DNA of 64,000 nucleotides from an uncultured Candidatus Saccharibacteria bacterium (lineage in GTDB: Bacteria > Patescibacteriota > Minisyncoccia > Phycocordibacterales > JACOZG01), in the NCBI GenBank assembly GCA_964448295.1, contig CAYUVV010000002.1:19081-83080 (forward strand), read 5' to 3'. The notes beneath the pieces are model-generated. The model was not told the DNA's origin, searched no databases, and saw nothing but the letters and a program-made list of their open reading frames with translations. The position numbers and the translations under genes were made by a program. This document shows positions 16,580-54,686 of the stretch, one piece after another; positions within the stretch are counted from its first letter, which is position 1, and the number at the start of each line of letters is the position of its first letter.

Positions 16580-16612
16580 GTTATTTAGGAAATTATTTTT
16601 AATTGTTAATTT

Positions 16613-16960: not shown

Positions 16961-16987
16961 ACCCGGCCATTATACCGGGTTAACGCT

Positions 16988-17557
16988 TTAAGAAGTTTTG
17001 CCGTTGTTGATAACTTGGCCGTTTTCGGCGTGATTTTGGCCGTTGGTGGCGCGCCGGCGCAAGAGGAATTTACGCGGCTGATGACCGAGATCGAAAAAAT
17101 CGTCGGCCGCCTCTTTGAGGCGGCCAGAAGTGCTCTTGCCGAAAGCGGCCACTTCTACCTGTCGCCCGTGCCACTTTAAATATTCCACTAGGGGAACGAA
17201 GTCGCCGTCGCCGGAAAGAATAATAATTGTGTCGAGCTGGCTCGAAAGCTTGATCGCGTCTACCGCCAAACCAACGTCCCAGTCGGCTTTTTTCATCCCC
17301 CCCGGGTAAATTTGCAAATCTTTGGTTTTGATTTCAATCCCGATCTTGCCGAGGGCGTCAAGAAAATTTTTCTCTTCTCCCGATTCGGTCGTAACCATAT
17401 AAGCCATAGCGCGCACCAACTGTCGCCCGCCGACGACTTCTTTAACAATCGCGCCGAAGTTGACGCGGGCTTGGTAAAGGTTTTTGGCGCAATGATAAAG
17501 ATTTTGGGTGTCAATAAAAACGCCGACCCGCTGGCTCGGATGTTTAATGATTGGCAT
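16988..17557 (-). CDS. NYN-domain (LabA-like/DUF88) putative ribonuclease
   Basis: VGVFIDTQNLY...ILSGDGDF pattern typical of the NYN/LabA fold. Confidence 0.75.
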   Translation of the reverse strand: MPIIKHPSQRVGVFIDTQNLYHCAKNLYQARVNFGAIVKEVVGGRQLVRAMAYMVTTESGEEKNFLDALGKIGIEIKTKDLQIYPGGMKKADWDVGLAVDAIKLSSQLDTIIILSGDGDFVPLVEYLKWHGRQVEVAAFGKSTSGRLKEAADDFFDLGHQPRKFLLRRRATNGQNHAENGQVINNGKTS

Positions 17558-17565
17558 AAAAAAGA

Positions 17566-17802
17566 TTATTTGGCCCCCGTCTTTTTCTGTTTTTCAATAT
17601 ATTTGAGATGCGAGCGGCGATCAGCCACCATTTTGAGGAGGCCGCGGCGCGAGTGATCATCTTGGCGATGCGTTTTCAAGTGCGTCGTCAATTCTTTGAT
17701 TCGCTCGCCCAAAACCGCCACTTGAATAGCGGAGGAGCCGGTATCGGACTCATGCAGGCGATGCTTTTTTATCAAGCCCTGCTTTTTCTTTTTGGAAATC
17801 AT
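17566..17802 (-). CDS. rpsO: 30S ribosomal protein S15
   Basis: DTGSSAIQVAVLGERIKELTTHLKTHRQDDHSRRGLLKMV matches the S15 consensus. Confidence 0.9.
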   Translation of the reverse strand: MISKKKKQGLIKKHRLHESDTGSSAIQVAVLGERIKELTTHLKTHRQDDHSRRGLLKMVADRRSHLKYIEKQKKTGAK

Positions 17803-17864
17803 AAAAGACGGTATTTGCTTATAAAAACGTTAACCTTGCTCATCCTAGCACATCCCGATCAAAT

Positions 17865-18785
17865 TTGCAATATAATGATCTAATGGACCTGACGAAATGG
17901 AAAACTGAATTTCTCGAGTATTTGGAGATTGAACGTGGTCGGAGTTTGCAAACGACGGCCAATTATGACCGCTATTTAAGCCGGTTTTTTGAATTTGCCA
18001 AAATTAAAAGGCCTGCGGAGATCACGGCGGAACTTGTGCGCCGTTATCGTCTCTGGTTGAATCGTCAATCGGCCCCGGGCGCCCACCAGACGCTTAAGAA
18101 AAATACCCAAAATTACCATCTAATTGCCCTACGCTCATTTCTCAAATTTTTAGCGCGGCGCGGAGTTGACTCCCTTTCCCCTACCGAGATTGATCTAGCA
18201 AAAACCGGCGCGCGCGATCTCGATCTTATATCACCGGCCGAGCTCCTGCGTCTGCTTGAGGCGCCTGACGTTTCCACTCCATCCGGCCGACGCGATCGGG
18301 CGATTTTAGAGCTTTTATTTTCTACCGGTTTGCGGGTTTCCGAGCTGTGCGGTCTTAACCGCGACACGATAGATCTAAAACAGGACGAGTTTTCTATTCG
18401 GGGCAAGGGGTCGAAGGTTCGGGTTGTTTTTGTGTCCCCCGCCGCCAAGCGGGCGCTTAAAAATTATCTGGAAAAACTTGATTTGCCAGGAGAGGCGCTT
18501 TTCCCCAATTTTCACCGCGGTGGTGAACGCCTGACCCCGAGAAGCATTGAACGGCTGGTCCGACATTATTCCGTTAAGGCCGGCATTAGCCGCAAAGTAA
18601 CGCCGCATGTCATCCGGCATAGTTTTGCCACCGACCTGCTACGCAACGGCGCCGATTTGCGCTCTGTCCAGATGCTCTTGGGTCATGCCAACATTGCCAC
18701 CACCCAGATTTACACTCACCTGACAGACAAACAGTTGAAAAAGGTCCATTCTCGGTTTCATCGACGGCCACCTGTGGATAACTGA
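17865..18785 (+). CDS. Tyrosine site-specific recombinase XerC/XerD family
   Basis: C-terminal catalytic motifs HVIRHSFAT...LLGHANIATTQIYTH (R-H-R-Y signature). Confidence 0.85.
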   Translation: MQYNDLMDLTKWKTEFLEYLEIERGRSLQTTANYDRYLSRFFEFAKIKRPAEITAELVRRYRLWLNRQSAPGAHQTLKKNTQNYHLIALRSFLKFLARRGVDSLSPTEIDLAKTGARDLDLISPAELLRLLEAPDVSTPSGRRDRAILELLFSTGLRVSELCGLNRDTIDLKQDEFSIRGKGSKVRVVFVSPAAKRALKNYLEKLDLPGEALFPNFHRGGERLTPRSIERLVRHYSVKAGISRKVTPHVIRHSFATDLLRNGADLRSVQMLLGHANIATTQIYTHLTDKQLKKVHSRFHRRPPVDN

Positions 18786-18920
18786 TATTGTCTTATAGGT
18801 CGTCTTTGATTATCTTATAGGACAGATATGATTTGGCCTTTAACCAGCTGCTGATGTGCCACTGGTTGTCTCATAAAACGCTTCTTCGGCAGCTATAACC
18901 ACCCAACCGTCACGGGTGGT

Positions 18921-20423
18921 TTATTTTACTCCGTATTTGTCGCGTATTTCTTTTAACTCGTTGTTTTCTCGCTCTTCTTTACGCTCTCTGCCTTTTTTGC
19001 CTAATTTTTCTAGAGCTTCGTCTGACAAATTAGCCATTTCTTTGGCTTTTTTTGTTAATTGTTCGTTGGTGTTAATTTCTGGATAATCAAGCGCCTCCTC
19101 CAGTAAGGCGTGGAGAATTTGACCTATTTTAGGCCCAGGTTTTAGTCCGGTTTCACGTAAAACATCTTCTCCGCTTATTTTGAGCATCGCCACGGATGTG
19201 GGAGACCTCATTGCTTCTTCGATCATTGATTCGTATTTTCTTAAGCGGTAAGGATTTTCTTTTGGCCGACCCATACCGATCCGATCGCAGTTTCGAACTT
19301 TCATCAAATCCCAAACGTTTTCTGGCCCGACATTTCTTACTATTCGTCTTACAGCCGAAAGGGTTATTCGATCGATATCGGTGAAAAACATATGATAACG
19401 AACCAGTTTCTTAACAACCTCTTCTGTTTTTTTGGCTAAGCGCAGGTTGGTACGCATAATCTGGGAGGCAATTTTTTCACCCACCACATCATGCCCGTAG
19501 AATGTCCAATCTTTTTTGTCTTCGCTCCAGCGTCTGGTTGAGGGCTTACCAATATCATGAAAAAGTACGGCCAGTCTCACGTGAAACGGAAAATTTTTGT
19601 CAGCCGAGTGCTGTAGAGCGCGCAAGGTGTGTTCCCAGACATCATACTTATGGTCGCCGTTTTGCTCTAAGCCGATTCCCTTTTCCAGTTCCGGAGCGAT
19701 GATCGAAAAAGCGCCTATTTTTTGAAGAAAAATTATGCCAACCATTGGTTGAGGCGACATTATTATCCGTTTAAATTCCTCGGTTACCCGCTCTTTAGCG
19801 AGATTACCTAATAAGGGCGATTTGATCGCCATGGCCTGCATCGTTTCGTTGTTTAACGTGAAACCCAGTTCAACCATTAAGCGTATTCCGCGCATAATAC
19901 GCAAAGGATCCTCTTCAAAACGCTCTTCCTGATTACCTACCGCTCGAATTATGCCCCGGCCCAAATCTTCCTGTCCTTTATGCGGATCGGTCAATTTCTG
20001 TTTAGAGACATTAAAAGACATCGCGTTAATAGTAAAGTCGCGCCGCGCCAGATCGTCCAATAGATTGGCGCCGAATTTTACGCTGTCGGGGTGCCTTTTG
20101 TCGGAATACTTCGCTTCCAGACGAAACGGAGTTATTTCAATATTGCGCAAACTTTGGTCTGTTGTGCTTTCGTCAATTACCGTTACTGTTCCAAACGCGT
20201 TTTCATAAATTGTTTTGGGAAAAAGGGTCGTGATTTGTTCCGGTATGGCATCGGTGGCCACATCCCAGTCTTTCGGGCTTTTACCTAGAAGCAGGTCGCG
20301 GACGCAACCCCCGACGAGTTCGGCTTGAAAACCGGCTTGTTCCAAGGTTTTGGTTACTCGTGAAACCTGAATTGGTAGACCTTCTGACCTTATTTTTCCA
20401 AGATTTTTGCCCATTTTTGCCAA
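18921..20423 (-). CDS. cca: CCA-adding tRNA nucleotidyltransferase with HD domain
   Basis: GGCVRDLLLGKSPKDWDVATDA (Pol-beta NTase head). HD motif (LFHDIGKP). Confidence 0.85.
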   Translation of the reverse strand: MAKMGKNLGKIRSEGLPIQVSRVTKTLEQAGFQAELVGGCVRDLLLGKSPKDWDVATDAIPEQITTLFPKTIYENAFGTVTVIDESTTDQSLRNIEITPFRLEAKYSDKRHPDSVKFGANLLDDLARRDFTINAMSFNVSKQKLTDPHKGQEDLGRGIIRAVGNQEERFEEDPLRIMRGIRLMVELGFTLNNETMQAMAIKSPLLGNLAKERVTEEFKRIIMSPQPMVGIIFLQKIGAFSIIAPELEKGIGLEQNGDHKYDVWEHTLRALQHSADKNFPFHVRLAVLFHDIGKPSTRRWSEDKKDWTFYGHDVVGEKIASQIMRTNLRLAKKTEEVVKKLVRYHMFFTDIDRITLSAVRRIVRNVGPENVWDLMKVRNCDRIGMGRPKENPYRLRKYESMIEEAMRSPTSVAMLKISGEDVLRETGLKPGPKIGQILHALLEEALDYPEINTNEQLTKKAKEMANLSDEALEKLGKKGRERKEERENNELKEIRDKYGVK

Positions 20424-20480
20424 TTGTAGTCTTTTTGTTATACTCTTGCCAGTTGTTTGTAAGTTTGGCTTTCGGTGGTT

Positions 20481-20552
20481 GCCCCTGTGGTGAAATGGAT
20501 ATCACGACGGTCTTCGGAACCGTTGTTGGGGGTTCGAATCCCTCCGGGGGCA
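20481..20552 (+). tRNA. tRNA-Arg (anticodon TCG); no encoded CCA
   Basis: Manually folded cloverleaf: acceptor GCCCCTG/CGGGGGC with one G-U pair, D-stem GTGA/TCAC, anticodon stem ACGGT/ACCGT with loop CTTCGGA, T-loop TTCGAAT. Coordinates checked against the overlapping ORF frame. Confidence 0.8.
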
Positions 20553-20564
20553 CAATGAATATAA

Positions 20565-20635
20565 GCGGCCATGGTTTAGTGGTAGAACACGTCCTTGCCA
20601 AGGATGAGACGGGAGTTCGATTCTCCCTGGCCGCA
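20565..20635 (+). tRNA. tRNA-Gly (anticodon GCC); no encoded CCA
   Basis: Acceptor GCGGCCA/TGGCCGC, anticodon loop TTGCCAA, T-loop TTCGATT. Confidence 0.8.
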
Positions 20636-20781
20636 CCGTCCTTAAAAAACCCTTGTTTTGTGGATAATCTTGGGGACATGGTGGATAAAAGACGACCAGC
20701 TTCCTTTATTTTATCGGTCTTTGAGATGTTTGTCCCTATGTTTCTTACGAAACGGTTGTCCTAGATTTTCACGTGTAACAT

Positions 20782-21192
20782 ATGCCCGAGACTGAAAAGC
20801 AAATCGCTGGTCGGATCGGGGAAGAAGCCGTTTGCCGTTTTTTGAAAAACAAAAACTGGACGATTATCGATCGTAATTACCGCCGGTCGTGGGGAGAAAT
20901 AGACGTAATAGCTCGTGAAAACGGGGGAGAAGGGATGCTGGTTTTTGTAGAAGTCAAAACTGTTGTGCGAGATAATTTGGAGCAAGTTTCACGCGAAACA
21001 GATAATTACGAGCCGGAAGACAACATCCATCCTTGGAAACTGAAACGCCTGTCGCGGGTAATTCAGACTTATCTTTTTGATAAAAATATCCCAGACGAAG
21101 CCGATTGGCGGTTCGATGTCGCCGCTGTTTATCTAGATCGGGGATTGAAACTATTGAAAATAGACCACCTCGAAGACCTAGAGTTGTGCTAA
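20782..21192 (+). CDS. yraN: YraN/UPF0102 family endonuclease
   Basis: GEIDVIARENG...LVFVEVKT pattern typical of YraN. Confidence 0.75.
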   Translation: MPETEKQIAGRIGEEAVCRFLKNKNWTIIDRNYRRSWGEIDVIARENGGEGMLVFVEVKTVVRDNLEQVSRETDNYEPEDNIHPWKLKRLSRVIQTYLFDKNIPDEADWRFDVAAVYLDRGLKLLKIDHLEDLELC

Positions 21193-21680
21193 ATCAAACA
21201 ATACACCGGCCCCCAGTCTCTCAACATCAAACTGACAGTCTACAATCAAGATGCTTCCCAATCACAAGAAGCCACCAAACGGATCTGGGTGGGGGAGGGG
21301 GTGCGGGCGCTTGGTGTGTTGCCGCTTGATGGTTCCCCGAAAGAAGCCCGAACCGCCGCCATTGACGGCAATCTGGCCTGGGTTCAGCGTCTTAACCCTC
21401 AAGAAATCGTCGCGATTGATATTTCCGACCCCTCTAATCTCGAACGTCTCTTCACTTTCAGCACCTCTCCCCGTGTGGCCTGGTCTTTGGCCGCCGAACA
21501 CGGTCGGATCTATGCCGCCAATGGCGGCGGCGGGTTTGATATTTGGATTAATCCCACTAATCCTCAAACCCGCGCTAAATACAGCTATGACCCCAACGCT
21601 TATGTTGGTAATCGTAGCTACTACGGCGTATTCGTCTTGGCCGATCCTTACAATCCTTATATTCAGGAGACAATAATTAA
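21193..21680 (+). pseudogene. 5' part of a host gene (LVIVD/beta-propeller-like repeat protein) interrupted by the IS1595-family element
   Basis: The frame is open from the yraN stop. It reads ...AIDISDPSNLERLF...RIYAANGGGGFDIWINPT...YNPYIQETIIK and runs straight into the element's left inverted repeat. Its continuation (…TNPDPGPYPGGDIKEGYYRDGVIYWGNYTHDFFTTSTQ*) resumes in frame after the right-hand TSD at 25087-25204. Confidence 0.6.
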
Positions 21681-21836
21681 GGTGACTATCCCTTGACAGC
21701 AGGTACGCTGTGAACTAGGATTGAGAGATGATTTTCGTAAAAATACACTTCCAACTGTGGATAAGATTTTCAAAAACTATATTTCTAGCCATTTTTCAGG
21801 ACTAGTCAAATCGTCTTGGTTTGCTAGAATTGTAGT

Positions 21837-23705
21837 ATGCCTCGATCAAGAAACAGCGAAGTAGATGCATACATTTTTATAAAAGAAACGCTTGAAAGCC
21901 TTGGATGGAATGTAAAAAATCCTGCTCGAAATCCGAATGGACAAGTTTACACCCAAACGGAATGCCAAGACCATCCTGAAATAAAAAAACGCCTTGACAG
22001 GCTCACTCCTGAAAATATAGTGAAATTGTCCGAGACTAAGTTCTGGGTCATCGAATCGAAGAAAGAGCACAAACAACTACAGCAGGCCCTTGAAGAAGCG
22101 AAAAAGGACTATGCGGAAAAGATAAACCAAAGCTCTACGATAAAAGCTGTTCTAATCTCTGGCGTCGCTGGCAATAGGACTGACAGTTATTTCGTTGAGA
22201 ATGAATACTTTGATGGGGTTAAATGGAAGCCTGTAACTATCAACGGAAAGAAGGCGTCGGCTCTTTTGTCGCCCGAAGAAGTGAAGACGATACTTGGTCA
22301 AAACTCCGCTGAGATCAAGGATATAATCATTGACGAAAATCTGTTCTTAGAAAAGGCGGAAAAGATAAACGAGATTCTTCATCTCGGAGCCATAAACAAA
22401 AACTACCGCGCACGAGTAATGGCGGCGATTCTCCTTTCCCTTATAGACGAGACGCCCCCGAATATAGAAGCGGCTCCCGTTACTCTGATGAAGGATATAA
22501 ACTCTCGTGTCGAGAGTGTCCTACAGAAGGAAGGAAAAAGGGATTTTGCCAGCCAAATAATGATTGAGCTTCCACCATCAACAGATAATCATGTGAAGTT
22601 CAAGAAGGCACTCGTTGATACCATCCAAGAATTGAATATCCTCAATATCCGATCCGCGATGAACTCTGGCACCGACGTGCTCGGCAAGTTCTACGAGGTG
22701 TTTTTGAAATACGGCAACGGAGCAAAAGAGATCGGTATCGTCCTTACACCTCGGCATATCACTCAATACGCTGTCGAGATTTTGGATGTGGGGCCGAACG
22801 ATATTATCTTCGACCCTACTTGCGGCACGGGAGGATTCCTCGTCGCCGCGTTCGACTATGTGAAGAAAAAGGCCAGCGAAAAGCAAATAGACAAGTTCAA
22901 GCAAAAAAACATATTCGGTATAGACCAAGAGCCTCCAGTCGTTGCTTTGGCAATCGTCAATATGATATTCAGAGGCGACGGCAAGAACAACATCATCGAG
23001 GGTAATTGCTTCCAAAAGAACCTGATCGCGAGTGGGGACACTGCGAAGTATGTAAGCGAGTATAAGAAAGACGAGCAGGCAATAACCAAGGTACTTATGA
23101 ATCCTCCCTTTGCGCTCAAAAGCAGTGATGAAAAGGAATACAGGTTTATTGATTATGCCTTAAAGCAGATGCAGGATGGCGGTACGCTTTTCTGCGTGTT
23201 GCCTTATTCAGCCATGTCGAAATCGTCGGGCTACGATGAATGGAGAAAGACGCTCGTACAGAACAACACCCTGCTTTCTGTAGTAACTTTCCCCGAAGAC
23301 CTTTTCTATCCGGTCGGTGTCTTTACAGTTGGCATCTTCGTCAAGAAAGGCATACCGCACCCGAAAGGGCAAAATGTCTTGTGGGTTAGGGCCATTACGG
23401 ACGGCTATGTGAAGAAAAAAGGCAAAAGACTGGTACCTGATAGGCCGGTTACAAACTTTCTCTCTGAATCAAAAGAGAATGTCCGATCATTTGTCTCGAA
23501 CCCTGAAATCAAACTAGAAAGCAGGCCGAAGCTCATAAAGGAATCGCCAATCAACTGGACTGACCCGCGCCTTGAATTGGTGCCCGAAGTCTATTTGGAT
23601 GACAATGACATGACAGCCGATGCTGTGAAGAAAGAGATAAAGTATTTGGTCAAGGAGGTCGCCTCGTTCAAAATTAAGTACAGCGATCTATTATACGAGA
23701 AATGA
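21837..23705 (+). CDS. N6-adenine DNA methyltransferase (HsdM-like / Type IIG-like gamma-class), cargo of the IS element
   Basis: SAM motif I FDPTCGTGGFLVAA and catalytic motif IV NPPF (MNPPFALK). N-terminal about 200-aa HsdM_N-like region. AT-rich codon usage unlike the host. Confidence 0.8.
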   Translation: MPRSRNSEVDAYIFIKETLESLGWNVKNPARNPNGQVYTQTECQDHPEIKKRLDRLTPENIVKLSETKFWVIESKKEHKQLQQALEEAKKDYAEKINQSSTIKAVLISGVAGNRTDSYFVENEYFDGVKWKPVTINGKKASALLSPEEVKTILGQNSAEIKDIIIDENLFLEKAEKINEILHLGAINKNYRARVMAAILLSLIDETPPNIEAAPVTLMKDINSRVESVLQKEGKRDFASQIMIELPPSTDNHVKFKKALVDTIQELNILNIRSAMNSGTDVLGKFYEVFLKYGNGAKEIGIVLTPRHITQYAVEILDVGPNDIIFDPTCGTGGFLVAAFDYVKKKASEKQIDKFKQKNIFGIDQEPPVVALAIVNMIFRGDGKNNIIEGNCFQKNLIASGDTAKYVSEYKKDEQAITKVLMNPPFALKSSDEKEYRFIDYALKQMQDGGTLFCVLPYSAMSKSSGYDEWRKTLVQNNTLLSVVTFPEDLFYPVGVFTVGIFVKKGIPHPKGQNVLWVRAITDGYVKKKGKRLVPDRPVTNFLSESKENVRSFVSNPEIKLESRPKLIKESPINWTDPRLELVPEVYLDDNDMTADAVKKEIKYLVKEVASFKIKYSDLLYEK

Positions 23706-24139
23706 AACTCAAAGACATATTCACAATAGAATACGGACAGAGGGAGTATCACTCAAAGGAGGGCCTTAAAAAGGGCAAGACTATCATGATCTCCTCTCAA
23801 TCAACCGATAACGGATGCTACGGATTTTTCGATGTGCCCGTGAGATATAAGGCTCCGTTCATAACGATACAGAGTACGGGAAGCGTCGGCGAGGCTACAG
23901 TGCAGGAGTTTGATTGTTGTGTTGATGATAATTGCCTGATACTCACACCGAAAGAAAAAATGGACTTGACCGAGCTGTATTTCATAGCCGCCGTTCTTCG
24001 ATTAAGCAAGTGGCGTTTCAGTTATGGAGGCAGAAAAGTTACCCCTCCTCGCATCGAGGAGATGGAGATTCCTGACATCAATCCGCCAATTAAGTACGAA
24101 GAGGTCGTGGCGGAATTGTCCGCCGTCCTGAAACGATAA
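23702..24139 (+). CDS. Putative single target-recognition domain (HsdS-like half specificity subunit), translationally coupled (ATGA) to the methyltransferase
   Basis: 145 aa, ITIQSTGSVGEATV pattern reminiscent of Type I S-subunit target-recognition domains. Assignment is tentative. Confidence 0.45.
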   Translation: MKLKDIFTIEYGQREYHSKEGLKKGKTIMISSQSTDNGCYGFFDVPVRYKAPFITIQSTGSVGEATVQEFDCCVDDNCLILTPKEKMDLTELYFIAAVLRLSKWRFSYGGRKVTPPRIEEMEIPDINPPIKYEEVVAELSAVLKR

Positions 24140-24168
24140 AATGAACAAAAAGAAATTCCAAAAACTAA

Positions 24169-25029
24169 TTAGGCTCGCTTCACAACCTGTCCAAGCATGG
24201 CCTCGAAAAGCGAAGCGTCCCCATGACGCTGATTCCAGCGATACACAAACTCATCAACGTAAGACTGCAAATACTTCGGCGAAACAACGCGGTGTGTCCC
24301 GTCCAAAGAACGCTTAAGCAAGCTCCAAAAACTTTCAATCGTGTTGGTGTGGATTTTGCCACGGACGTACTCTTTGACAGCGTGTTTTATGTACTGGTGA
24401 TTGTACCCCTGTCGGGCGATTTGATTGTAAATGTTAAACTCGTCTGTCATAACATTGCTACCTTTTCGTACGGATGAGTTTATGATCGGCTGTATCGTCA
24501 ATGTTTTTACGTTTGGCACAACTGATGCTTTAACTTTTCCAGTACGGCTTGCGATACCAAAGACAGGCGTTTTATTTTCCGCTCCACGGCCACGTTTATT
24601 GTTTCGTCCTTTACCTCCAACATACGTCTCGTCTATCTCAACTGTGCCACTAAACATATTGCCGTTTTGGGCAAAGAGTAATCGTATCTGCTTTGCCATT
24701 CTCCAAGCACACTTATAAGTTACGCCGATCTGGCGTTCAATTTCTTTAGCGGATACTCCGTTACGGCTTGAGGCAAACAAGAAGATGGCATGAAACCAAT
24801 CATGCAGTGACGTAGGAGACTTGTGGAATATGGTGCCAGCGACAGGATGAACAGAATGGCCACACTGACAATCATATCGCTTACGACCCTCTATGAGATG
24901 ATGGCTGTTCTTTTTGCCACAGTCGGGGCATTTATAGCCCTTTCCGTAGCGATTAGTAAATATAGCTTGTAAGCAGGCGTTATCGTCTGGGTAATCCTTA
25001 TTGAAGTCCTTTATGGTATACTTTTTCAT
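24169..25029 (-). CDS. IS1595-family (ISXO2-like) DDE transposase with N-terminal zinc ribbon
   Basis: N-terminal C-x2-C...C-x-C (YKCPDCGKKNSHHLIEGRKRYDCQCGH). Central DDE region (DEFNIYNQIARQGYNHQYIKH...E). The ORF track starts at TTG 25047; Met-7 (25029) is the likelier start. Confidence 0.85.
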   Translation of the reverse strand: MKKYTIKDFNKDYPDDNACLQAIFTNRYGKGYKCPDCGKKNSHHLIEGRKRYDCQCGHSVHPVAGTIFHKSPTSLHDWFHAIFLFASSRNGVSAKEIERQIGVTYKCAWRMAKQIRLLFAQNGNMFSGTVEIDETYVGGKGRNNKRGRGAENKTPVFGIASRTGKVKASVVPNVKTLTIQPIINSSVRKGSNVMTDEFNIYNQIARQGYNHQYIKHAVKEYVRGKIHTNTIESFWSLLKRSLDGTHRVVSPKYLQSYVDEFVYRWNQRHGDASLFEAMLGQVVKRA

Positions 25030-25078
25030 ATACAGACAGTCTAGCAAATAGGCTACCTGCTGTCAAGGGATAGTCACC

Positions 25079-25204
25079 ATAATTAAAACCAATCCCGACC
25101 CGGGCCCTTATCCGGGCGGCGATATCAAGGAGGGCTATTATCGTGATGGCGTAATTTATTGGGGCAACTACACCCACGATTTCTTCACCACCTCAACACA
25201 ATAA
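25079..25204 (+). pseudogene. 3' part of the same interrupted host gene (resumes in frame after the TSD)
   Basis: Removing the element and one copy of ATAATTAA restores ...QETIIKTNPDPGPYPGG...TSTQ* as one continuous frame. Confidence 0.55.
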
Positions 25205-25268
25205 CTTTTGGTTTGTGCTAGTCTGGTGTGGGCGGGCTTGCCCGCCGTAGTCAGTCGGCGAGCGGAGG

Positions 25269-25341
25269 CGGGGCATAGTGTAACGGCTAACATACTCGCT
25301 TTGGGAGCGAGCGACTCCCGGTTCGAATCCGGGTGCCCCGA
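25269..25341 (+). tRNA. tRNA-Pro (anticodon TGG); no encoded CCA
   Basis: Acceptor CGGGGCA/TGCCCCG, anticodon stem CTCGC/GCGAG with loop TTTGGGA, T-loop TTCGAAT. Confidence 0.75.
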
Positions 25342-25441
25342 TACTTGACTTTTTAACTGCTTTTTGCTACAATAGAAGAGGAGTTTGGTAAGTACCTTGA
25401 TTTTCCTACCTTTTTTCGGCCTTAGGCCGGAGGAGATTGCC

Positions 25442-25660
25442 GTGAAAAACAACCGTTTTTTGGCTATTTTGGGTCTTCTCGTCCTCGCGCCAATTTTTGG
25501 CATGGGATGCGACGAAGGCCTGACCATCGTTTTCGATGATGGTTACGGATATGGTTCGTCATACTCCTACACGGAGTATGATGAGGATTGTGATTTTTGG
25601 CACGGATGTACGTACACGTACACCACCCGCTACTATTCCTATAAAGGGGGCGCGCGATGA
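25442..25660 (+). CDS. Small secreted/lipoprotein-like Tyr-rich protein (72 aa)
   Basis: GTG start 7 nt after the AGGAG ribosome-binding site. Signal-like NNRFLAILGLLVLAPIFGMGC, then Tyr/Gly/Asp-rich YGYGSSYSYTEYDEDCDFWHGCTYTYTTRYYSYKGG. ATGA overlap with the next gene. (ORF track: 25385 TTG.). Confidence 0.5.
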   Translation: MKNNRFLAILGLLVLAPIFGMGCDEGLTIVFDDGYGYGSSYSYTEYDEDCDFWHGCTYTYTTRYYSYKGGAR

Positions 25661-26016
25661 GAAAGTCCGTTTTTTGGGCCATAATTATTACGGTCGCGTT
25701 CTGGCTCGGGGGATCTTGCGGTTGCGCGATTTCTCGCGTAACCGACAAGGTTCGCATCCAAGGACGGGAACGGACCGAGGAAACCTCCGGCGTGAAGTTT
25801 TGGTCGCAGGAGGCGACCACGACAGTTACCGCCCCTGACGGGTCGTCTTATACCGAGACCCGTCCGGTGGGTTTGATGGGGGCGATTTTCGGGACGACCA
25901 ATTGGTACGGCGTCCCGCCCCCGGAGATCTACATTTATCGCGGCGGCGGTAGTCATTGTTACTCCAACCACCGCGAAGTAGTATGGCGGCGAACGATTTA
26001 CGTTCGTCGTCGTTAG
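25657..26016 (+). CDS. Small lipoprotein-like protein (119 aa)
   Basis: MRKSVFWAIIITVAFWLGGSCGC (signal plus Cys). A purine-rich AAAGGGGGCGCGCG ribosome-binding site lies just upstream. A poly-G run (10-11 G) follows the stop. Confidence 0.5.
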   Translation: MRKSVFWAIIITVAFWLGGSCGCAISRVTDKVRIQGRERTEETSGVKFWSQEATTTVTAPDGSSYTETRPVGLMGAIFGTTNWYGVPPPEIYIYRGGGSHCYSNHREVVWRRTIYVRRR

Positions 26017-26074
26017 GTAGGGGGGGGGGGAGTGGATTCGGCTGGCGGGCCGGATCCAACTGCGGACCCGTCGT

Positions 26075-26112
26075 TGGCTTTCGAGCTGACGGCGGGTCTA
26101 TTTTTTTAAGTT
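26075..26112 (+). terminator. Putative rho-independent terminator after the small-lipoprotein pair
   Basis: Inverted repeat GACCCGTCG...CGGCGGGTC followed by a T7 run. Confidence 0.45.
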
Positions 26113-26142
26113 AAACGATGTGGTAATCTGATTTAGCTGAGG

Positions 26143-26214
26143 CGGAGCGTAGTGTAACGGTAACATGCACGATTCGGGTTCGTGTGACTCCGGGTTCAAA
26201 TCCCGGCGCTCCGA
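26143..26214 (+). tRNA. tRNA-Pro (anticodon CGG); no encoded CCA
   Basis: Acceptor CGGAGCG/CGCTCCG, anticodon stem CACGA/TCGTG with loop TTCGGGT, T-loop TTCAAAT. Confidence 0.75.
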
Positions 26215-26320
26215 TATTTTGAGGTAATTTGCGCTCCGGCCTACCTTTTGTTTATAATCAAAAGTGGAGTCAATTGGCATTGGGGCTGATTGGCGCGCAG
26301 TTTTTGCTTTAGGAGGATTT

Positions 26321-26593
26321 ATGAAAACTTCTATGGCAGTTGACGATTTGAGGCAATCTATTAGGGACGGCGATCCCGAACGTGTTCGGGAGGGGTTGGA
26401 CGTTTTGCGCCAAGCGGCTCAAGATTTCGTTAGTGCTTATGAGAATATGTGGGCGGCGTGCTCGATCCCTTTCCGAGACGAGCTAAACACAAGATATCCT
26501 CGACTTATGACAGATGTTTGCGATTTTCGGAATTTTATTGCCACGAAGGCGAAAGAAGGAGATCTGTGTCAGCCCGAACTCGATTTTTCCTGA
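26321..26593 (+). CDS. Small hypothetical cytoplasmic protein (90 aa)
   Basis: ATG 6 nt after an AGGAGG ribosome-binding site. The ORF track begins at an upstream GTG (26264), which is probably not used. Confidence 0.45.
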   Translation: MKTSMAVDDLRQSIRDGDPERVREGLDVLRQAAQDFVSAYENMWAACSIPFRDELNTRYPRLMTDVCDFRNFIATKAKEGDLCQPELDFS

Positions 26594-26673
26594 CAAGACG
26601 ATCTCGATAGAACTTGGCCCCCCGCACATTAGTGTCGGCGAAACGCCGTGGTGTGTTGTGGGGGTCTTATTTT

Positions 26674-26744
26674 CGGGACGTAGTATACCGGTAGTACGCG
26701 CCCATGGGGTGGGTGTAGACCGGGTTCGATTCCCGGCGTCCCGA
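26674..26744 (+). tRNA. tRNA-Pro (anticodon GGG); no encoded CCA
   Basis: Acceptor CGGGACG/CGTCCCG, anticodon stem CGCCC/GGGTG with loop ATGGGGT, T-loop TTCGATT. Coordinates set from the overlapping ORF frames. Confidence 0.75.
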
Positions 26745-26756
26745 TTGTTGGCTCGG

Positions 26757-26827
26757 GCGGACATCGTATAGTGGTAGTACGACTGCCTTCCAAGCAGTAA
26801 GCGCGAGTCCGATTCTCGCTGTCCGCA
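26757..26827 (+). tRNA. tRNA-Gly (anticodon TCC); no encoded CCA
   Basis: Acceptor GCGGACA/TGTCCGC, D-stem CGTA/TACG, anticodon stem ACTGC/GCAGT with loop CTTCCAA. Closely resembles E. coli tRNA-Gly(UCC). Confidence 0.8.
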
Positions 26828-26830
26828 TCT

Positions 26831-27994
26831 ATGCTTATAAAAAAATCAGAATTGGCTAAAGCTACGGAGGCTCTGCGCACTTGGATCACGATTGACACCA
26901 AGGCCGTGCGGCACAACTTTCGGCTGTTTCGGCGGTATTTGCCGGCGGGTGCGAAATTGATGCCGGTGGTTAAGTCCAATGCCTATGGGCACGGCTTGGT
27001 TCAGTTTTCACAATTGATGGAAAGTTTGGGGGCGGACTATTTGGGCGTCGATTCTATTACCGAGGCCAGGCGCCTGCGGCGAGAGGGAATTAAAATTCCG
27101 ATTTTGGTTTTGGGCTATACGCGTCCAGCCTGTTACGCCGAGGCCTTAGAGATTGGGGTTGATCTAACCGTTTCTTCTTTTGAATCTCTGCTTACCCTCA
27201 ACCGTTTTCTGGCTGGGCAACCGAATGGTCATCGTCTGCCAATTCACTTAAAAATTGATACCGGTATGCACCGCCAAGGTTTTGTGGCGGGGGAGTGGGG
27301 GAGATTGTTGCGTTTGTTGCCCAAACGCCATCCGGCCTTATTTGTTGCCGGCGTTTATTCTCATCTGGCCGCCTCCAATTCGGGCGAGCATCTGGCGGCG
27401 ACCCGTCGGCAGTTAACCAGTTTTCACTCGTTTCTCGACCGATTGGCGGCGGTTGACATTAAGCCGGCCCTGATTCATTGCCTAAGCACCGGTGGCGCTT
27501 TGGGTTATCGCGATCAGCGCTTCAACTTGTTTCGCGTTGGCCTCGGTTTGTATGGGGCTTGGGTTTCTCCCGAATGGCAGAAAAAGTTTGGCCAGTCTTT
27601 TCCCTTGCGGCCAGTATTAAGTTGGCAAACAATTGTGAGCGAGATCAAGACTGTGCCGGCGGGGGAGGCCGTGGGCTACGGATTTTTGGAAACCTTAAAT
27701 CGGCCGACCACTTTGGTAATTTGCCCCATCGGCTATTGGCACGGCTTTCCTTTACCCCTTTCCTTGCGCGGCGAAGTGGTGGTCGCCGGTCGTCGCGCCC
27801 GCGTTGTGGGTCGTGTGTCTATGGATATGATTGCGGTTGACGCCACCGATTTGCCCCGCCGGCCGCGCGTGGGGTCTACTGTTACTCTGATCGGCCCGGA
27901 GTTGCGGGCTGAAGAATTCGCCCGCTGGTCGGGGACCCATCCACACGAAGTGCTCACTCGTATCAACCCCCTAATTAAAAAGTTTTATCTCTGA
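26831..27994 (+). CDS. alr: Alanine racemase
   Basis: PLP-Lys motif VVKSNAYGHG. C-terminal beta-domain conserved. Confidence 0.9.
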   Translation: MLIKKSELAKATEALRTWITIDTKAVRHNFRLFRRYLPAGAKLMPVVKSNAYGHGLVQFSQLMESLGADYLGVDSITEARRLRREGIKIPILVLGYTRPACYAEALEIGVDLTVSSFESLLTLNRFLAGQPNGHRLPIHLKIDTGMHRQGFVAGEWGRLLRLLPKRHPALFVAGVYSHLAASNSGEHLAATRRQLTSFHSFLDRLAAVDIKPALIHCLSTGGALGYRDQRFNLFRVGLGLYGAWVSPEWQKKFGQSFPLRPVLSWQTIVSEIKTVPAGEAVGYGFLETLNRPTTLVICPIGYWHGFPLPLSLRGEVVVAGRRARVVGRVSMDMIAVDATDLPRRPRVGSTVTLIGPELRAEEFARWSGTHPHEVLTRINPLIKKFYL

Positions 27995-51969: not shown

Positions 51970-52722
51970 ATGACGGATAAATCTGTCGCCGACAAAGTGT
52001 TGGGCCAAATAGCTCGCAAACAAAATGACTTGTTTCGCAGGGTGCGCGAAGGAACACTGGAACCGGACTTGGTTTTGTCTGGTCTCCAAAATCTGATCGA
52101 GGGTCGGTTCCCGCAACTGGCGAGCGGCAGTAGCTCTGTCATTCTTAGCCCTGGTGTTTGCGAGAAGGTCTACGCGCTTCTGGACTCCAGCACTAAAGTC
52201 CTTGAGACACTGTGGGTACCACCCATCGCCGGTTTCTGGGAAGTTTATGTCCCGCCAGGTGTTACCCCCGACCGCGTTATCGCAGCGATGCGCAGGGCTG
52301 GGATGACGGTTTGTACCTGGACCGGAGGCGGCGTGGACGAGTATATCGCTCACAACGACCGTAGTCCTAACAACGGTGCCTACCGTGCTCGTTTTCGGGC
52401 CAACGTCGAGGCTGACCCTGAATTTGCCAAAAAGTCGACCAACGACCTGGTCAAGTTCGGCTACCAGGGTATTACCTTAACCGAGCGTCTGTTGTTGGGG
52501 TTGGCCTACTTTCTGGCCACCGAGAACAACGATGACCTCAACCAGCGTCATCTTGACGTCGAAAACGCGACGCTCTGTGCAGGCTCTCGTCTCTCTGGCG
52601 GCGCTGTCCCGCGCGTGCACTGGGATTCGACGTTCCGCAGGGTCTACGTCGACTGGTACTACGTTGATAGTGCCAGCCCACGCCTCCGTTCTCGTCTCGC
52701 AGTTGAGTACACTGGTAACTAG
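51970..52722 (+). CDS. DGR target protein (250 aa) with C-terminal variable region (VR)
   Basis: The C-terminal about 120 nt (52585-52704) is near-identical to the downstream template repeat apart from substitutions at TR adenines. No signal peptide evident. Confidence 0.8.
   Translation: MTDKSVADKVLGQIARKQNDLFRRVREGTLEPDLVLSGLQNLIEGRFPQLASGSSSVILSPGVCEKVYALLDSSTKVLETLWVPPIAGFWEVYVPPGVTPDRVIAAMRRAGMTVCTWTGGGVDEYIAHNDRSPNNGAYRARFRANVEADPEFAKKSTNDLVKFGYQGITLTERLLLGLAYFLATENNDDLNQRHLDVENATLCAGSRLSGGAVPRVHWDSTFRRVYVDWYYVDSASPRLRSRLAVEYTGN
52585..52704 (+). repeat. DGR variable region (VR) inside the target gene 3' end
   Basis: Aligned by eye to TR: 20 differences at positions where TR has A (TR AAC/AAT codons correspond to VR CGC/CAC/GAT/TTC/GAC/TAC/AGT/AGC/CTC) and one non-A difference. 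A conserved GC-rich 3' end (IMH-like CTCCGTTCTCGTCTCG) is followed by a hairpin at 52737-52768. Confidence 0.85.
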
Positions 52723-52969
52723 AGACTTGTCCCCTTGCCCCCAATCAGTCAAATGGCTGGTTGGGGGCTCTGTGTGTAAAATGATTTTGGGTTGTTAAAC
52801 CGGCTTCGCACAATGTGAGGTAGCGGTTTACCCACTGCTAGAAACTGCTTGTTCAATCCTAGCGAGTTTAGACTCGGCACACTGCTCCCGAGGAGGAGAA
52901 AATTCAGATGATTTTGCTTGTTTTTTCAGGTAAGGTCGTCGGTGCGATTGACGGGGTGGGGCAAAAGGC

Positions 52970-53091
52970 GATCTCGTAACTCTGACGGCAATGTCCCGAA
53001 CGTGAACTGGAATTCGACGAACCGCAAGGTCTACGTCAACTGGTACAACGTTGATAATGCCAACCCGAACCTCCGTTCTCGTCTCGAAGTT
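52970..53091 (+). repeat. DGR template repeat (TR)
   Basis: About 122 bp homologous to VR, rich in in-frame AAC/AAT codons. Followed by the hairpin GGCCGGC-ttatcc-GCCGGCC and a T-run. The overlapping ORF 52918-53166 is an artefact of TR. Confidence 0.85.
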
Positions 53092-53107
53092 TCGCGAACG
53101 GGCCGGC

Positions 53108-53518
53108 TTATCCGCCGGCCTTTTCGTTGTTTAAGGTATATTTCCTCCACCCCGCGGCCATTTTAGAAACTTCTTCTAGTTTTTCTACCAGAGACAGGTA
53201 AGTTTGATCGGCCACCAACTTTATTTCGTAACAAATCCTAATGAGTCTTTTAGCTATCTCGATTTTAAGCGACAACTGTCTTAAAATTTCTGTTTTTCCA
53301 TTTGCTGGTGATAAAGCGGCCAGTGTCGCAAGCTCAAGACAAGCGAGATTGGTGTTTTCTACTCGCGACCAGACGCCCAATTTGTCGGCCTTGTTTAGTT
53401 TCTTTCCCGCCAGATACACCCGCTTGTATAATTCACCCAACCCATGAACAATTGGCAACTTGACGCTTGCGGGGGGGCACTCAATGGTCGCTGTGGCACC
53501 ATATAATTTCACTCCCAA
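53108..53518 (-). CDS. avd: Avd-like four-helix-bundle accessory protein of the DGR (TIGR02436-like), encoded antisense between TR and the reverse transcriptase
   Basis: 136 aa. ...EILRQLSLKIEIAKRLIRICYEIKLVADQTYLSLVEKLEEVSKM fits the four-helix-bundle/Avd pattern. Position is typical for avd but orientation is opposite. The 5' end overlaps the RT start. Confidence 0.5.
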   Translation of the reverse strand: MGVKLYGATATIECPPASVKLPIVHGLGELYKRVYLAGKKLNKADKLGVWSRVENTNLACLELATLAALSPANGKTEILRQLSLKIEIAKRLIRICYEIKLVADQTYLSLVEKLEEVSKMAAGWRKYTLNNEKAGG

Positions 53519-54477
53519 ATTTACTCCACGCGTGGCGTGAATTCAAGCGCGGAAAAACTAGAAAACCAGACGTTCTAGAATTCGACTTCAGTCTCGAAAG
53601 CAATTTACTCGCTCTCCACGACGAGTTACTCAACCAAACTTATTGTCCTGGTCCGTATCAAACCTTTCTCGTCCGCGACCCCAAATTGCGCCACATCCAC
53701 AAGGCCCCGGTCCGCGATCGGGTGATTCATCAAGCTCTGTTTCGGGTTCTTTACCATCTGTTCGACCGCCACTTCATCCACGACTCTTATTCTTGTCGTT
53801 TTAATAAAGGCGTTCATCGGGGAGTGGAACGATTGGAGGCTTTTACCAGAAAGGTTAGCAAAAATTACTGTTATCCTGTCTGCGTTCTCCAAGGTGATAT
53901 CAGAAAATTTTTCGACAATATTTCCCATCGTATCTTATTAAACTTGATTAAGCAGCAAATAACCGACCCCGATGTTCTCCAACTAATCAAGTTCATTATC
54001 TCCAGTTTTGAAATTGGCCCCGGTCGTGGTTTACCCCTCGGCAACGTGACCAGCCAACTATTTGCCAACATTTTCTTAAATGAACTGGACCAATTTGCCA
54101 AACACCAACTCCGAGAAAAACATTACCTCCGCTATTGCGACGACTTCGTGATTTTGCATTTCAGCAGAGATCATCTTGAAATCTTGCCAGCAAAAATTAA
54201 CCACTTTCTCCAAACTCGACTTGGCCTTGAACTCCACCCTCAAAAACTGACCATCAGAAAATTAAGCTGGGGCGTTGATTGGTTGGGGTACATCGTTCGT
54301 CCTCATTATCAGATTCTGCGCACCAAGACCAGAAGACGAATTGAAAAACGTCTGAAAAGAGATGAGATTAACGAGAAAAATTTACCGTCTTATCTGGGGA
54401 TATTGAAATGGTGTCGGGGGTATAAGTTACGTAGCACTTTAGATCAGATTAGGCCACCAAATGCTTTCCCCGTTTGA
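53467..54477 (+). CDS. DGR reverse transcriptase
   Basis: RT motifs: RHIHKAPVRDRVIHQAL, the DGR-specific LPLGNVTSQLFANIFLNELD (GxxxSQ in motif 4), and YCDDF (YxDD). TTG start. N-terminus NLLHAWREFKRGK typical of RTs. Confidence 0.9.
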   Translation: MRGGTQWSLWHHIISLPNLLHAWREFKRGKTRKPDVLEFDFSLESNLLALHDELLNQTYCPGPYQTFLVRDPKLRHIHKAPVRDRVIHQALFRVLYHLFDRHFIHDSYSCRFNKGVHRGVERLEAFTRKVSKNYCYPVCVLQGDIRKFFDNISHRILLNLIKQQITDPDVLQLIKFIISSFEIGPGRGLPLGNVTSQLFANIFLNELDQFAKHQLREKHYLRYCDDFVILHFSRDHLEILPAKINHFLQTRLGLELHPQKLTIRKLSWGVDWLGYIVRPHYQILRTKTRRRIEKRLKRDEINEKNLPSYLGILKWCRGYKLRSTLDQIRPPNAFPV

Positions 54478-54499
54478 GGCAACGAGTGCAGAGGAGGAT

Positions 54500-54529
54500 G
54501 CGCTCACCCTGCGGAGTGAGCGCGTTTTG
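54500..54529 (+). terminator. Rho-independent terminator after the reverse transcriptase
   Basis: GCGCTCAC-cctgcgga-GTGAGCGC followed by GTTTTGG. Confidence 0.5.
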
Positions 54530-54686
54530 GAGATTGGGGTATTTGCGTTGTTTGCCCGTGGGATTGAATTTGGTGGCGCGGACGCGGTTCGAGTAACCGC
54601 CCGCGACGCGACTCCATTTGGCGCAACCTACACATTGTTTCATAGGTTCCGTATGCTAACATACGAGAGACTCGTTCGCAAATCCA

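Follow-up and report, generated by a model that had tools for sequence, protein, structure and literature searches.

In the window, the whole stretch of 64,000 nucleotides that was analyzed, the following features were identified in 5' to 3' order: a target gene with a C-terminal VR, a terminator-like hairpin, a putative promoter, a leader of ∼180 nt, a TR, a stem-loop, an inverted avd gene and a reverse transcriptase (RT) gene. The core of this arrangement, with TR at 52971-53091 (+), avd on the reverse strand at 53108-53518 (-) and RT at 53467-54477 (+), corresponds to the B3 architecture TR-(avd)-RT of the diversity-generating retroelements (DGRs) of CPR/DPANN (Wu et al., 2018, PMC5758913). 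A complete DGR had been proposed in an earlier sequence-only reading of this DNA; its four components, the TR/VR repeat pair, RT, Avd and target, were each tested and found here, and the positions assigned to them were right to within 1-2 nt. The same layout and adenine-biased TR/VR mismatches were observed in 64 related Patescibacteria loci. The B3 order TR-avd-RT is kept in 63 of the 65 loci analyzed, and all 80 related loci originate from Patescibacteria-type MAGs.

The VR (52584-52704, +) comprises the last ∼40 codons of the target gene (codons 205-245 of the 250-codon ORF), ends 18 nt before the stop codon and matches the non-coding TR over 121 nt without gaps. When the end of this ORF is compared without gaps with the downstream intergenic copy, the best diagonal has an offset of 387 nt, and identity drops at once beyond 52584-52704 and 52971-53091. 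The differences had been described as adenine-specific, and indeed the computed alignment contains 21 mismatches, 20 of which are located at TR adenines (hypergeometric p 1.2e-13), with 32 adenines in the TR. Nine of these are A to G, seven A to C and four A to T; the lone mismatch at a non-adenine, TR G 53067, converts CCG to CCA and is synonymous. The in-frame AAC/AAT codons of TR, which had been singled out as recoded, number 12, and all 12 are altered in VR. The 18 mutable codons of TR correspond to ∼10^17.8 possible peptides, and the VR stretch is hypervariable across members of the target family. No second VR was detected when both strands of the whole window were scanned using the non-A TR positions only.

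The target (variable-protein) gene (51970-52722, +) encodes a protein of 250 aa with an N-terminal two-helix module, an alpha/beta middle and a C-terminal part ending in the VR. A check of this C-terminus for a CLec or Ig-like VR scaffold had been proposed, and in fold prediction it models as an FGE/C-type-lectin fold on which the VR is displayed. At the sequence level no match to the FGE-sulfatase and DUF1566 Pfam models was obtained, and Foldseek with the target returned nothing. As had been noted before, no signal peptide could be identified, and a TM segment is absent as well. For P0020, which belongs to a second protein family with the same N-terminal module, an adjacent DGR was sought and no RT was found within 6 kb. 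The target family comprises ∼2,200 clusters without an annotated domain; with a predicted FGE/C-type lectin fold now assigned, it also appears to be non-secreted, and both properties bear on what CPR cells diversify, and why.

The IMH-like 3' end of the VR, CCTCCGTTCTCGTCTCGCAGTT (52683-52704, +), is 22 nt long and the same as the TR end except for C52700 in place of A53087. The pair GCAGTT (VR) and GAAGTT (TR) also occurs in L002, L004, L006 and many other loci. This last mismatch recurs in relatives and need not be an ordinary diversified site: it could be the first templated base, or a difference between IMH and IMH* that has become fixed. A GC-rich hairpin (52737-52768, +) with a 14-bp stem and a 4-nt loop is located 15 nt past the target stop codon and 32 nt past the VR. 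Its existence had been pointed out together with a likeness to the Bordetella phage hairpin; it folds with -27.8 kcal/mol (z -5.7) and its stem sequence is the same in L002 and L004. The hairpin is, however, also terminator-like: a post-VR hairpin is found in 48 of the 65 loci, at a median of 44 nt past the VR, and is provided with a T-rich tail in 39/65. It is regarded as a candidate DGR cruciform and/or target-gene terminator, and its role as a cruciform can only be inferred.

A -10-like hexamer, TAAAAT (52777-52782, +), ends 7 nt ahead of the first base of the leader and is the putative promoter of the TR RNA. In all 28 leader matches above 80 bits except L015 (-7), a TAnnnT hexamer is placed between -12 and -14 relative to the model start, and in 34 of the 40 leader matches it lies within 18 nt of that start. 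A simple sigma-70 scan did not call TAAAAT at this position because there is no -35 match, and it is from conservation that a promoter is proposed. The structured leader itself (52790-52968, +; ∼180 nt) is composed of the stem-loop P1 (52790-52832), a single-stranded motif, and the long-range helix P2 (52851-52860 with 52953-52962), which closes a domain holding the P3 hairpins (∼52863-52898) and P4 (∼52907-52941). The motif, GAAACUGCUU (52841-52850, +), is conserved and complementary both to (A)AGUUUC at the 3' end of the TR and to GCAGTT in the VR; within the leader GAAACUGC is single-stranded and the complement of the TR/VR 3' end. Directly past the TR follows a stem-loop with a U-run (53094-53127, +), consisting of the core GGGCCGGC-UUAUCC-GCCGGCCU and then UUUCGUUGUU, with the stop codon of avd in the loop. 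It was matched in a terminator scan at 53100-53121, folds with -23.6 kcal/mol (z -4.6), and its stem shows compensatory change in L006. Post-TR hairpins are present in 52/65 loci, at a median of 10 nt past the TR, with a T-rich tail in 39/65. The stem-loop is terminator-like and also a candidate Avd-binding stem-loop. Taken together, the TR appears to belong to a discrete small-RNA gene that has a conserved putative promoter, a leader supported by covariation and a stem-loop resembling a terminator. No description of the leader, promoter and terminator of the TR unit was found in the literature consulted.

The leader structure is well supported by comparison of related loci. RNAalifold on 18 loci resulted in 35 pairs, 28 of them with compensatory changes; pairing amounted to 94.8%, compared with 68% in shuffled and 33-49% in slid controls, and double changes were observed at all 35 pairs. 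P2 is 97% paired and strongly covarying, and its 3' strand ends 8 nt ahead of the TR. P3a, with 82% pairing, is tentative. An added helix, P3b, was only 57% paired on the model-fitted alignment and is not claimed. The covariance model R1 identified 40 matches in 632 kb, one per locus, with 120 bits for the match in the window. Each match adjoins the 5' side of TR-like sequence wherever the TR or its flank could be read, and the leader stays at the TR 5' side even at loci with a distant or inverted VR (L030, L035, L081). In Rfam 15 no match to the leader reached gathering score in the window and 18 related loci, and across 52650-53550 none was found at E<=10; the TR-flanking RNA does not fall within the Rfam RT-associated motifs (RT-1 to RT-19, including RT-10).

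The complementarity between the leader 8-mer and the TR and VR ends was quantified in 30 loci as best ungapped complement counts. With the cognate TR end, the motif at 52841-52850 formed 7/8 Watson-Crick pairs in 18 of the 30 loci. Cognate leader-TR duplexes had a mean of -7.8 kcal/mol vs -6.4 kcal/mol for non-cognate ones, and leader-VR duplexes of -10.7 vs -8.2 kcal/mol, with permutation p<1e-4 in both cases and relatedness uncontrolled. Compensatory leader variants were identified in L020/L030 (GAAACUAC with GUAGUU), L073 (AGAGACUUC with GAAGUCUCU) and L043 (AACUCC with VR GGAGTT), and additional mismatches in the leader-TR pairing in L011, L022, L049 and L080. Both the motif and the TR end are strongly conserved, so that the apparent leader-TR covariation is supported by a small number of variant loci.

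It is quite possible, and is put forward here tentatively, that B3 (CPR) DGRs use a circularly permuted DGR RNA, in which the ∼180-nt leader 5' of the TR stands in place of the Bordetella 3' spacer. The primer:template duplex would then consist of leader GAAACU and (A)GUUUC at the TR 3' end, with the leader giving the priming nucleotide as in a retron, and the neighboring P2 helix would be the stop duplex for the cDNA. The single leader-TR mismatch is systematic, with the leader G facing the final mutable adenine of the TR, a position at which a C or T able to pair is found in most VRs; in the permuted arrangement it might mark the first templated base or tell donor from recipient. As far as found, cDNA priming in B3 DGRs, in which antisense avd lies in place of the Bordetella spacer, is not treated in the literature consulted. 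The leader offers a specific, testable answer, for which the minimal RNA for reconstitution would be 52790-53130. If true, the permuted leader would be an undescribed RNA class that sets initiation in the most abundant environmental DGR group. A Bordetella-like stop duplex of GGGGUGGGG upstream of the TR with CCUCCACCCC downstream (53150-53160) was considered as well. It was set aside because 53150-53160 encodes the conserved Avd C-terminal M..GW on the other strand and because the GGGGUGGGG segment already lies within the strongly covarying P2.

The leader may instead not be a priming or positioning RNA at all, and act as a 5' regulatory element, a protein-binding platform or a guide to the VR IMH sense strand that marks the recipient, with the primer located 3' of the TR as in the Bordetella phage. 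This alternative is tenable, if somewhat doubtful. In 14/30 loci the VR end is a better match to the motif than the TR end is, which could mean a different role: all eight positions of the motif pair with the cognate VR end in 14 of 30 loci, against 2% for the other 8-mers of the leader, whereas full pairing with the TR end is seen in 2 of 30, the low number for TR arising because TR usually has one mismatch. In L060, L080 and L043 the perfect complement is the VR and not the TR. In addition, Handa et al. predicted Avd-binding stem-loops and stop duplexes for CPR DGRs, downstream ones included, using 40 nt of sequence 5' and 100 nt 3' of the TR (bioRxiv 10.1101/2023.10.23.563531), a placement that competes with that of the permuted leader, and a 5-bp alternative 3' of the stem-loop can be drawn between UUUCG (53122-53126) and CGAAG (53085-53089). 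However, only ∼35-40 nt of RNA follow the TR up to the terminator-like U-run, after which the RNA is antisense to avd, and the segment just 5' of the TR is already held in P2. In the window itself, moreover, the TR end is the better partner of the motif, with 7/8 vs 6/8 pairs.

The avd (accessory variability determinant) gene (53108-53518, -) is convergent with the TR and divergent from the RT gene. It encodes 134-136 aa, depending on whether TTG 53518 or GTG 53512 is the start, the latter resulting in the 134 aa on record. The minus strand of this ORF had not been stated before. An Avd-like gene had been proposed, and matches covering nearly the whole models were obtained to Pfam bAvd (29 bits, E 1.4e-6) and NCBIfam DivGenRetAVD (35 bits, E 1.3e-8), both below the curated cut-offs. 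An open frame is present at this position in 63/65 loci, and 60 of 61 positional orthologs match bAvd. P0150 and P0151, the only two Avd homologs from a word-index search, carry PF22296. A single-sequence search of the PDB with Avd gave spurious matches only and a family profile was needed, which matched 4dwl_A (E 1e-3) and the Avd 8ub7_B, entry 8ub7 including a chain named Avd.

The element might also be a relic, in which the cassette was recently inactivated and the TR/VR signature reflects past diversification. Decayed cassettes at the same chromosomal site in two relatives are in line with this: L002 retained the leader and a non-cognate TR and has lost avd and RT, and in L004 only 107 C-terminal residues of the RT remain. 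When a TR was sought by VR self-match in the syntenic relatives L002, L004 and L005 none was found, and their sequences are those of decayed cassettes. Moreover, one TR/VR difference lies at a non-adenine, and the target gene is present in two assemblies without VR variants between them. A relic is nevertheless considered unlikely. None of the three ORFs (RT, avd, target) is truncated, whereas L002 and L004 are without avd and full RT; YCDD and LGNVTSQ are intact, the leader reaches 120 bits with the family model and the IMH-like end is kept. Current diversification by the DGR is putative, as the target protein is identical in both known assemblies. Because two close relatives hold decayed copies at the same chromosomal site, the element is regarded as chromosomal and inherited.

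The RT (53467-54477, +) is 336 aa long with a TTG start, and both motifs read from the sequence before, LGNVTSQ (motif 4, residues 191-197) and YCDDF (223-227, catalytic YCDD), are located in its ORF. It matches RVT_1 (Pfam) with 75 bits. Of the RTs with a solved structure, that of the Bordetella phage DGR (bRT, 8ub7_A) is the nearest (149 bits over the full length, E 1.4e-42, residues 10-322), whereas group II RTs reach <=79 bits and retron and other solved RTs <=55 bits, in agreement with the earlier assignment as DGR-type. More than 5,400 homologs were found at E<=1e-30, those with a source name being mostly Patescibacteria; the closest one returned has 64% identity, the identical RT itself being absent from the returned list. 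Identity to annotated RTs of phages and archaeal viruses, among them ANMV-1 and five Bordetella phage records, is 35-38%. By similarity scores and the [LIV]GxxxSQ motif, which it carries, the RT is placed with the DGR RTs. That it is a group II intron, retron or defense RT beside a coincidental repeat can be dismissed with near certainty: no DGR-RT model was among the NCBIfam matches returned, the top one being a group II RT/maturase model, and some homologs are named 'retron-type RT' at source, but the 142 bits of that match are far under its cut-off of 300, bRT scores ∼2 times as high as any group II RT, no intron or retron RNA family matches were found, and the TR/VR statistics (p 1e-13) and the adjoining Avd gene with its bAvd family membership rule this origin out.

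A chromosomal, apparently intact DGR of the Patescibacteria (CPR) 'B3' type is very probably the best explanation for the locus. It is an ordinary DGR for the Patescibacteria, which are known to be rich in DGRs, with a possibly undescribed RNA component. In the proposed mechanism, a separate small RNA of ∼340 nt would be transcribed from the -10-like box at 52777-52782 via leader and TR to the stem-loop/U-run at 53094-53130. By homology to the Bordetella phage system, the RT-Avd complex would bind this TR RNA, reverse-transcribe the TR and misincorporate opposite adenines, the adenine-specific outcome being seen directly in the VR. Marked as the recipient by the invariant 22-nt IMH-like end, and perhaps by the hairpin too, the VR would then be replaced with the cDNA. 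The outcome would be a small, non-secreted protein with an FGE/C-type-lectin fold whose ligand-binding face could exist in up to ∼10^18 variants. The leader would do the work of the Bordetella 'Sp' spacer RNA from the TR 5' side.

Compared with known systems, the gene order is not that of Bordetella: avd is inverted relative to TR and RT, which is the CPR 'B3' layout. The BPP-1 DGR (mtd-avd-TR-brt) shares adenine mutagenesis, RT-bRT homology (8ub7_A, E 1e-42), Avd-Bbp7 homology (4dwl), the IMH-like invariant end, a GC-rich hairpin past the VR and a CLec-fold target. In BPP-1, however, the TR is followed by a 140-nt Sp, here by ∼35 nt and the terminator-like stem-loop, and the 180-nt structured RNA upstream of the TR is unlike BPP-1; its target is a tail fiber, here a small cytoplasmic-looking protein. 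From TvpA (2y3c), TaqVP (5vf4), Mtd (1yu0) and the FGE-sulfatase fold family, the target differs by its distinct N-terminal helical module and very small size (250 aa).

The BPP-1 Sp corresponds to the RT-10 RNA motif (Weinberg et al., 2017, PMC5737381). A shared topology with the leader is proposed, consisting of a short strand complementary to the TR 3' end, a gap of 2-4 nt, a strand whose partner is the sequence immediately ahead of the TR, then a stem-loop and an A-rich run. The strand order of Sp 53-56, 59-70 and 71-81 in the Bordetella RNA (bioRxiv 10.1101/2023.10.23.563531) would be matched by the leader with primer strand, 4 nt, stop-duplex strand, and stem-loop plus A-rich run. Sp lies 3' of the TR and the leader, whose function is putative, 5' of it (circularly permuted), and the two share no sequence or covariance-model similarity, with no Rfam match at E<=10. 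If the leader primes, it would resemble the retron msr-msd RNA, by analogy only, in having a priming RNA 5' of the template, in one transcript and base-paired to the template 3' end; the DGR differs from retrons in RT clade, Avd dependence, adenine mutagenesis and cDNA fate.

The closest likeness is to the CPR/DPANN B3 DGRs, of which the first survey is reportedly that of Paul et al. 2017. Gene order, orientation, host clade and RT clade are alike, with no structural difference, as is the single adjacent target with a C-terminal VR and without a recognizable domain. The copy described here adds a predicted FGE/CLec fold for a target family that the Wu et al. survey would leave as 'unknown VR', and a defined leader RNA, putative promoter and terminator for the TR unit. 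The value of the locus lies in being a clean, complete and chromosomally anchored B3 example with decayed syntenic copies in relatives.

The target gene, a 250-aa ORF (51970-52722), carries the VR in its last ∼40 codons (52584-52704), and the intergenic TR (52971-53091) is offset 387 nt downstream. Both repeats are 121 nt long and align without gaps, and their identity stops sharply at either boundary. They differ at 21 positions, 20 of which are TR adenines and one a synonymous G/A difference; given the 32 A in the TR, the adenine bias has a hypergeometric p of 1.2e-13, and the adenine-specific mismatches had been accurately described in the sequence-only reading. From TR to VR, A became G nine times, C seven times and T four times; the VR recodes each of the 12 AAC/AAT codons that the TR has in frame, and the 18 mutable TR codons correspond to about 10^17.8 peptides. 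The target protein was identical in the two assemblies carrying the gene. No second VR was found on either strand of the 64-kb window, nor did the window contain an additional RT, avd or target copy. Within target residues 1-47 (51970-52110; …QNDLFRRVREGTL…LQNLIEG), the N-terminal ∼45 residues share 57-75% identity with the N-terminal ends of proteins in another family, ∼190 aa long (P0017-P0029), whose C-terminal parts are unrelated yet likewise look hypervariable; for one member, P0020, no RT was present within 6 kb. This common segment may be a docking or partner-binding module.

The RT ORF (53467-54477, TTG start) matches RVT_1. Its closest solved structure was 8ub7_A (E 1.4e-42, 149 bits, residues 10-322 versus 9-316), in an alignment including IGSLTSQLFANV versus LGNVTSQLFANI, whereas group II intron RTs among the solved structures reached 79 bits at most. 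8ub7_A was assigned as the Bordetella phage DGR RT because the entry also has a chain named Avd. The top NCBIfam match was a group II RT model with 142 bits, far under its cut-off of 300, and no DGR-RT model was among the NCBIfam matches. A tblastn search of phage genomes turned up RT genes with 35-38% identity; the records, from phages and archaeal viruses, include ANMV-1 and five of Bordetella phage. The avd ORF (53108-53518, minus strand) matches nearly the whole of Pfam bAvd (29 bits, E 1.4e-6) and NCBIfam DivGenRetAVD (35 bits, E 1.3e-8), both under the curated cut-offs. In 63 of 65 loci this position and strand hold an open frame; 60 of 61 ORFs there matched bAvd (best E among related loci 5e-21), and their profile matched BPP-1 Avd 4dwl_A (E 1e-3) and 8ub7_B. 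The proposed DGR identity is thus supported by the TR/VR bias, the RT being nearest, among solved structures, to 8ub7_A and the bAvd-family ORF; the Avd-like gene is indeed present, but on the minus strand. In their longest forms, the RT and avd ORFs are divergent, and their 5' ends overlap by ∼50 nt (53467-53518) across the C/G run cggggggg (53470-53477), where GGG in RT and PPP in Avd are the family consensus over the same DNA. The conserved constraint here may be on either protein or on a DNA/RNA element. A Logan contig of DRR784963 breaks at about 53480, within the overlap.

To place the element, 80 RT-related loci from species-representative genomes were scanned for adenine-biased repeats. 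A shared layout of VR, 239-387 nt, TR of ∼120 nt, ∼370-460 nt and RT was found in 64 loci and the window, with a TR-to-RT gap of only ∼95 nt in two loci without an avd frame. In most of these, more than 90% of the mismatches were located at TR adenines. The element is a typical member of a known DGR class, that with architecture B3, TR-(avd)-RT, which makes up 90% of the CPR set of Wu et al. and is found almost nowhere else (PMC5758913). In the same study, the fold of most CPR VRs was left as ‘unknown’ (PMC5758913).

Because the VR-TR spacing is constant, the region between both repeats was studied more closely. The hairpin noted past the VR is present after the target stop codon (52737-52768, -27.8 kcal/mol, z -5.7) and has an equivalent in 48 of 65 loci, to which a T-rich tail is added in 39; this hairpin and the one after the TR may be dual in nature. 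Between stop codon and hairpin (52723-52736) the window reads CTTGTCCCCTTGCCCCC, the equivalent in L013 being CCCTTGTTCCTTATCCCTTGTTCCC, and pyrimidine-rich CTTG(T)(T)CC repeats occur here in most related loci. We infer the promoter and RNA ends of the TR unit. A -10-like TAnnnT hexamer (52777-52782) lies 7 nt ahead of a conserved GG(C/U) start and was found at the equivalent position in 27 of 28 strong leader matches; of all 40 matches, 34 have it within 18 nt. Directly after the TR, a stem-loop with a U-run (53094-53127) holds the avd stop codon in its loop; its stem is compensatory in L006, and equivalents were found in 52 of 65 loci.

Of all the element's features, only the leader upstream of the TR (52790-52968), composed of conserved sequence blocks and helices, may be previously undescribed. 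RNAalifold on 18 loci predicted 35 pairs, 28 with compensatory changes. A covariance model from these loci gave 40 matches in 632 kb, one per locus, including 22 non-seed loci and the decayed L002 and L004, and a single match in the window (120 bits). Wherever a TR was identified or the flank inspected, the match lies directly 5' of a TR-like sequence; this includes loci with a distant or inverted VR (L030, L035, L081). In the covariance-model alignment 94.8% of cells pair, compared with 68% after shuffling and 33-49% with partners slid, and all 35 pairs show double changes; as this alignment is model-fitted, the non-seed loci and an independent MAFFT result matter. P1 (a 5' stem-loop), P2 and P4 are well supported, P2 being a 10-bp long-range helix with a 3' strand that stops 8 nt short of the TR; support is tentative for P3a and absent, as aligned, for P3b. 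No match was obtained in Rfam 15, including RT-1 to RT-19, of which RT-10 is the Bordetella Sp motif (PMC5737381), and no description of the leader was found in the literature covered, which did not include Paul et al. 2017. At L009:239-431 (minus strand) a leader-TR-stem-loop unit lies ∼2 kb upstream of the RT in opposite orientation; this unit is therefore separable from avd and RT.

The element is flanked by recJ, RNase H, comEC, a metallo-beta-lactamase-fold gene, an M50 peptidase, rpsL, rpsG and fusA, and homologs with a source name were mostly from Patescibacteria/Parcubacteria. In two relatives the target gene occupies this same chromosomal position. L002 (target 72% identical) has lost avd and RT by deletion and retains, in the region syntenic to window 52723-54480 (L002:882-1546), a 125-bit leader, a TR-like sequence and a terminator hairpin. 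In L004 (Candidatus Vogelbacteria, target 46% identical) the RT is reduced to its last 107 residues and the syntenic region (L004:3365-3795) holds a weak leader (52 bits). At another place in its genome, L002 also carries a full cassette with the window's layout (L006/L007; RT 74-77%, Avd 85%). The shared site, the decayed copies and this complete cassette indicate that the element is chromosomal, inherited and prone to decay; the window copy appears intact by its sequence. The L002 TR-like sequence (L002:1128-1260, encoding NWNDGKFNVNYWNRGDANPRGG) belongs to a different VR class, resembles the TR of L006/L007 and not the adjacent VR, and has VR-type GCAGTT at its end. It could represent a TR unit that is orphaned or recombinant and perhaps acted on in trans. 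Directly after the RT lies a 64-aa ORF (54449-54643, minus strand), where syntenic loci have a 64-65-aa gene, the L004 copy of which weakly matches ribosomal protein L28. The RT stop codon overlaps the 3' end of this ORF, which leaves the cassette tightly packed among housekeeping genes. Window positions 16000-26900 have a GC content of 45-49% compared with 53-57% elsewhere and hold six tRNA genes (20481-20635, 25269-26827).

The TR end (A)AGUUUC (53088-53093) has its complement in an unpaired, highly conserved leader motif, GAAACUGCUU (52841-52850). Cognate duplexes were more stable than non-cognate ones, both with TR ends (-7.8 versus -6.4 kcal/mol) and with VR ends (-10.7 versus -8.2 kcal/mol), with permutation p<1e-4 for each, uncorrected for relatedness. 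Complementarity was kept in variant loci: GAAACUAC with GUAGUU (L020/L030), AGAGACUUC with GAAGUCUCU (L073), AACUCC with VR GGAGTT (L043) and GGGAAC with VR GTTCCC (L014). Most loci have a single TR mismatch to the motif; in the window TR adenine 53087, also the last TR/VR difference, faces leader G52847, and the VR base at this position (C or T) would pair with the leader. Full pairing of the leader 8-mer was seen with the VR end for 14 of the 30 loci and with the TR end for two, against a background of 2% of other leader 8-mers. This pattern would fit priming next to the TR adenine (53087 in the window), and it fits equally well a leader that tells recipient from donor.

Possible priming by the leader can be compared with Bordetella. 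There, cDNA synthesis depends on 20 nt on the upstream side of the TR and on 140 nt of Sp on its downstream side; TR 118-121 is paired to Sp 53-56, with A56 as primer, Sp 59-70 forms a stop duplex with the bases immediately 5' of the TR, and the RNA after this Sp strand continues with a stem-loop and then adenosines (bioRxiv 10.1101/2023.10.23.563531). Here, the P2 5' strand starts four nt after the leader motif, its partner strand lies just 5' of the TR, and a stem-loop and an A-rich run come after P2. That the leader 5' of the TR replaces the Bordetella 3' Sp is a possible reading, to which we give somewhat less than even weight. The local topology of the Bordetella Sp is echoed by this leader, but from the 5' side of the TR, and whereas 140 nt of Sp follow the TR in Bordetella, here a short RNA follows it and then runs antisense to avd.
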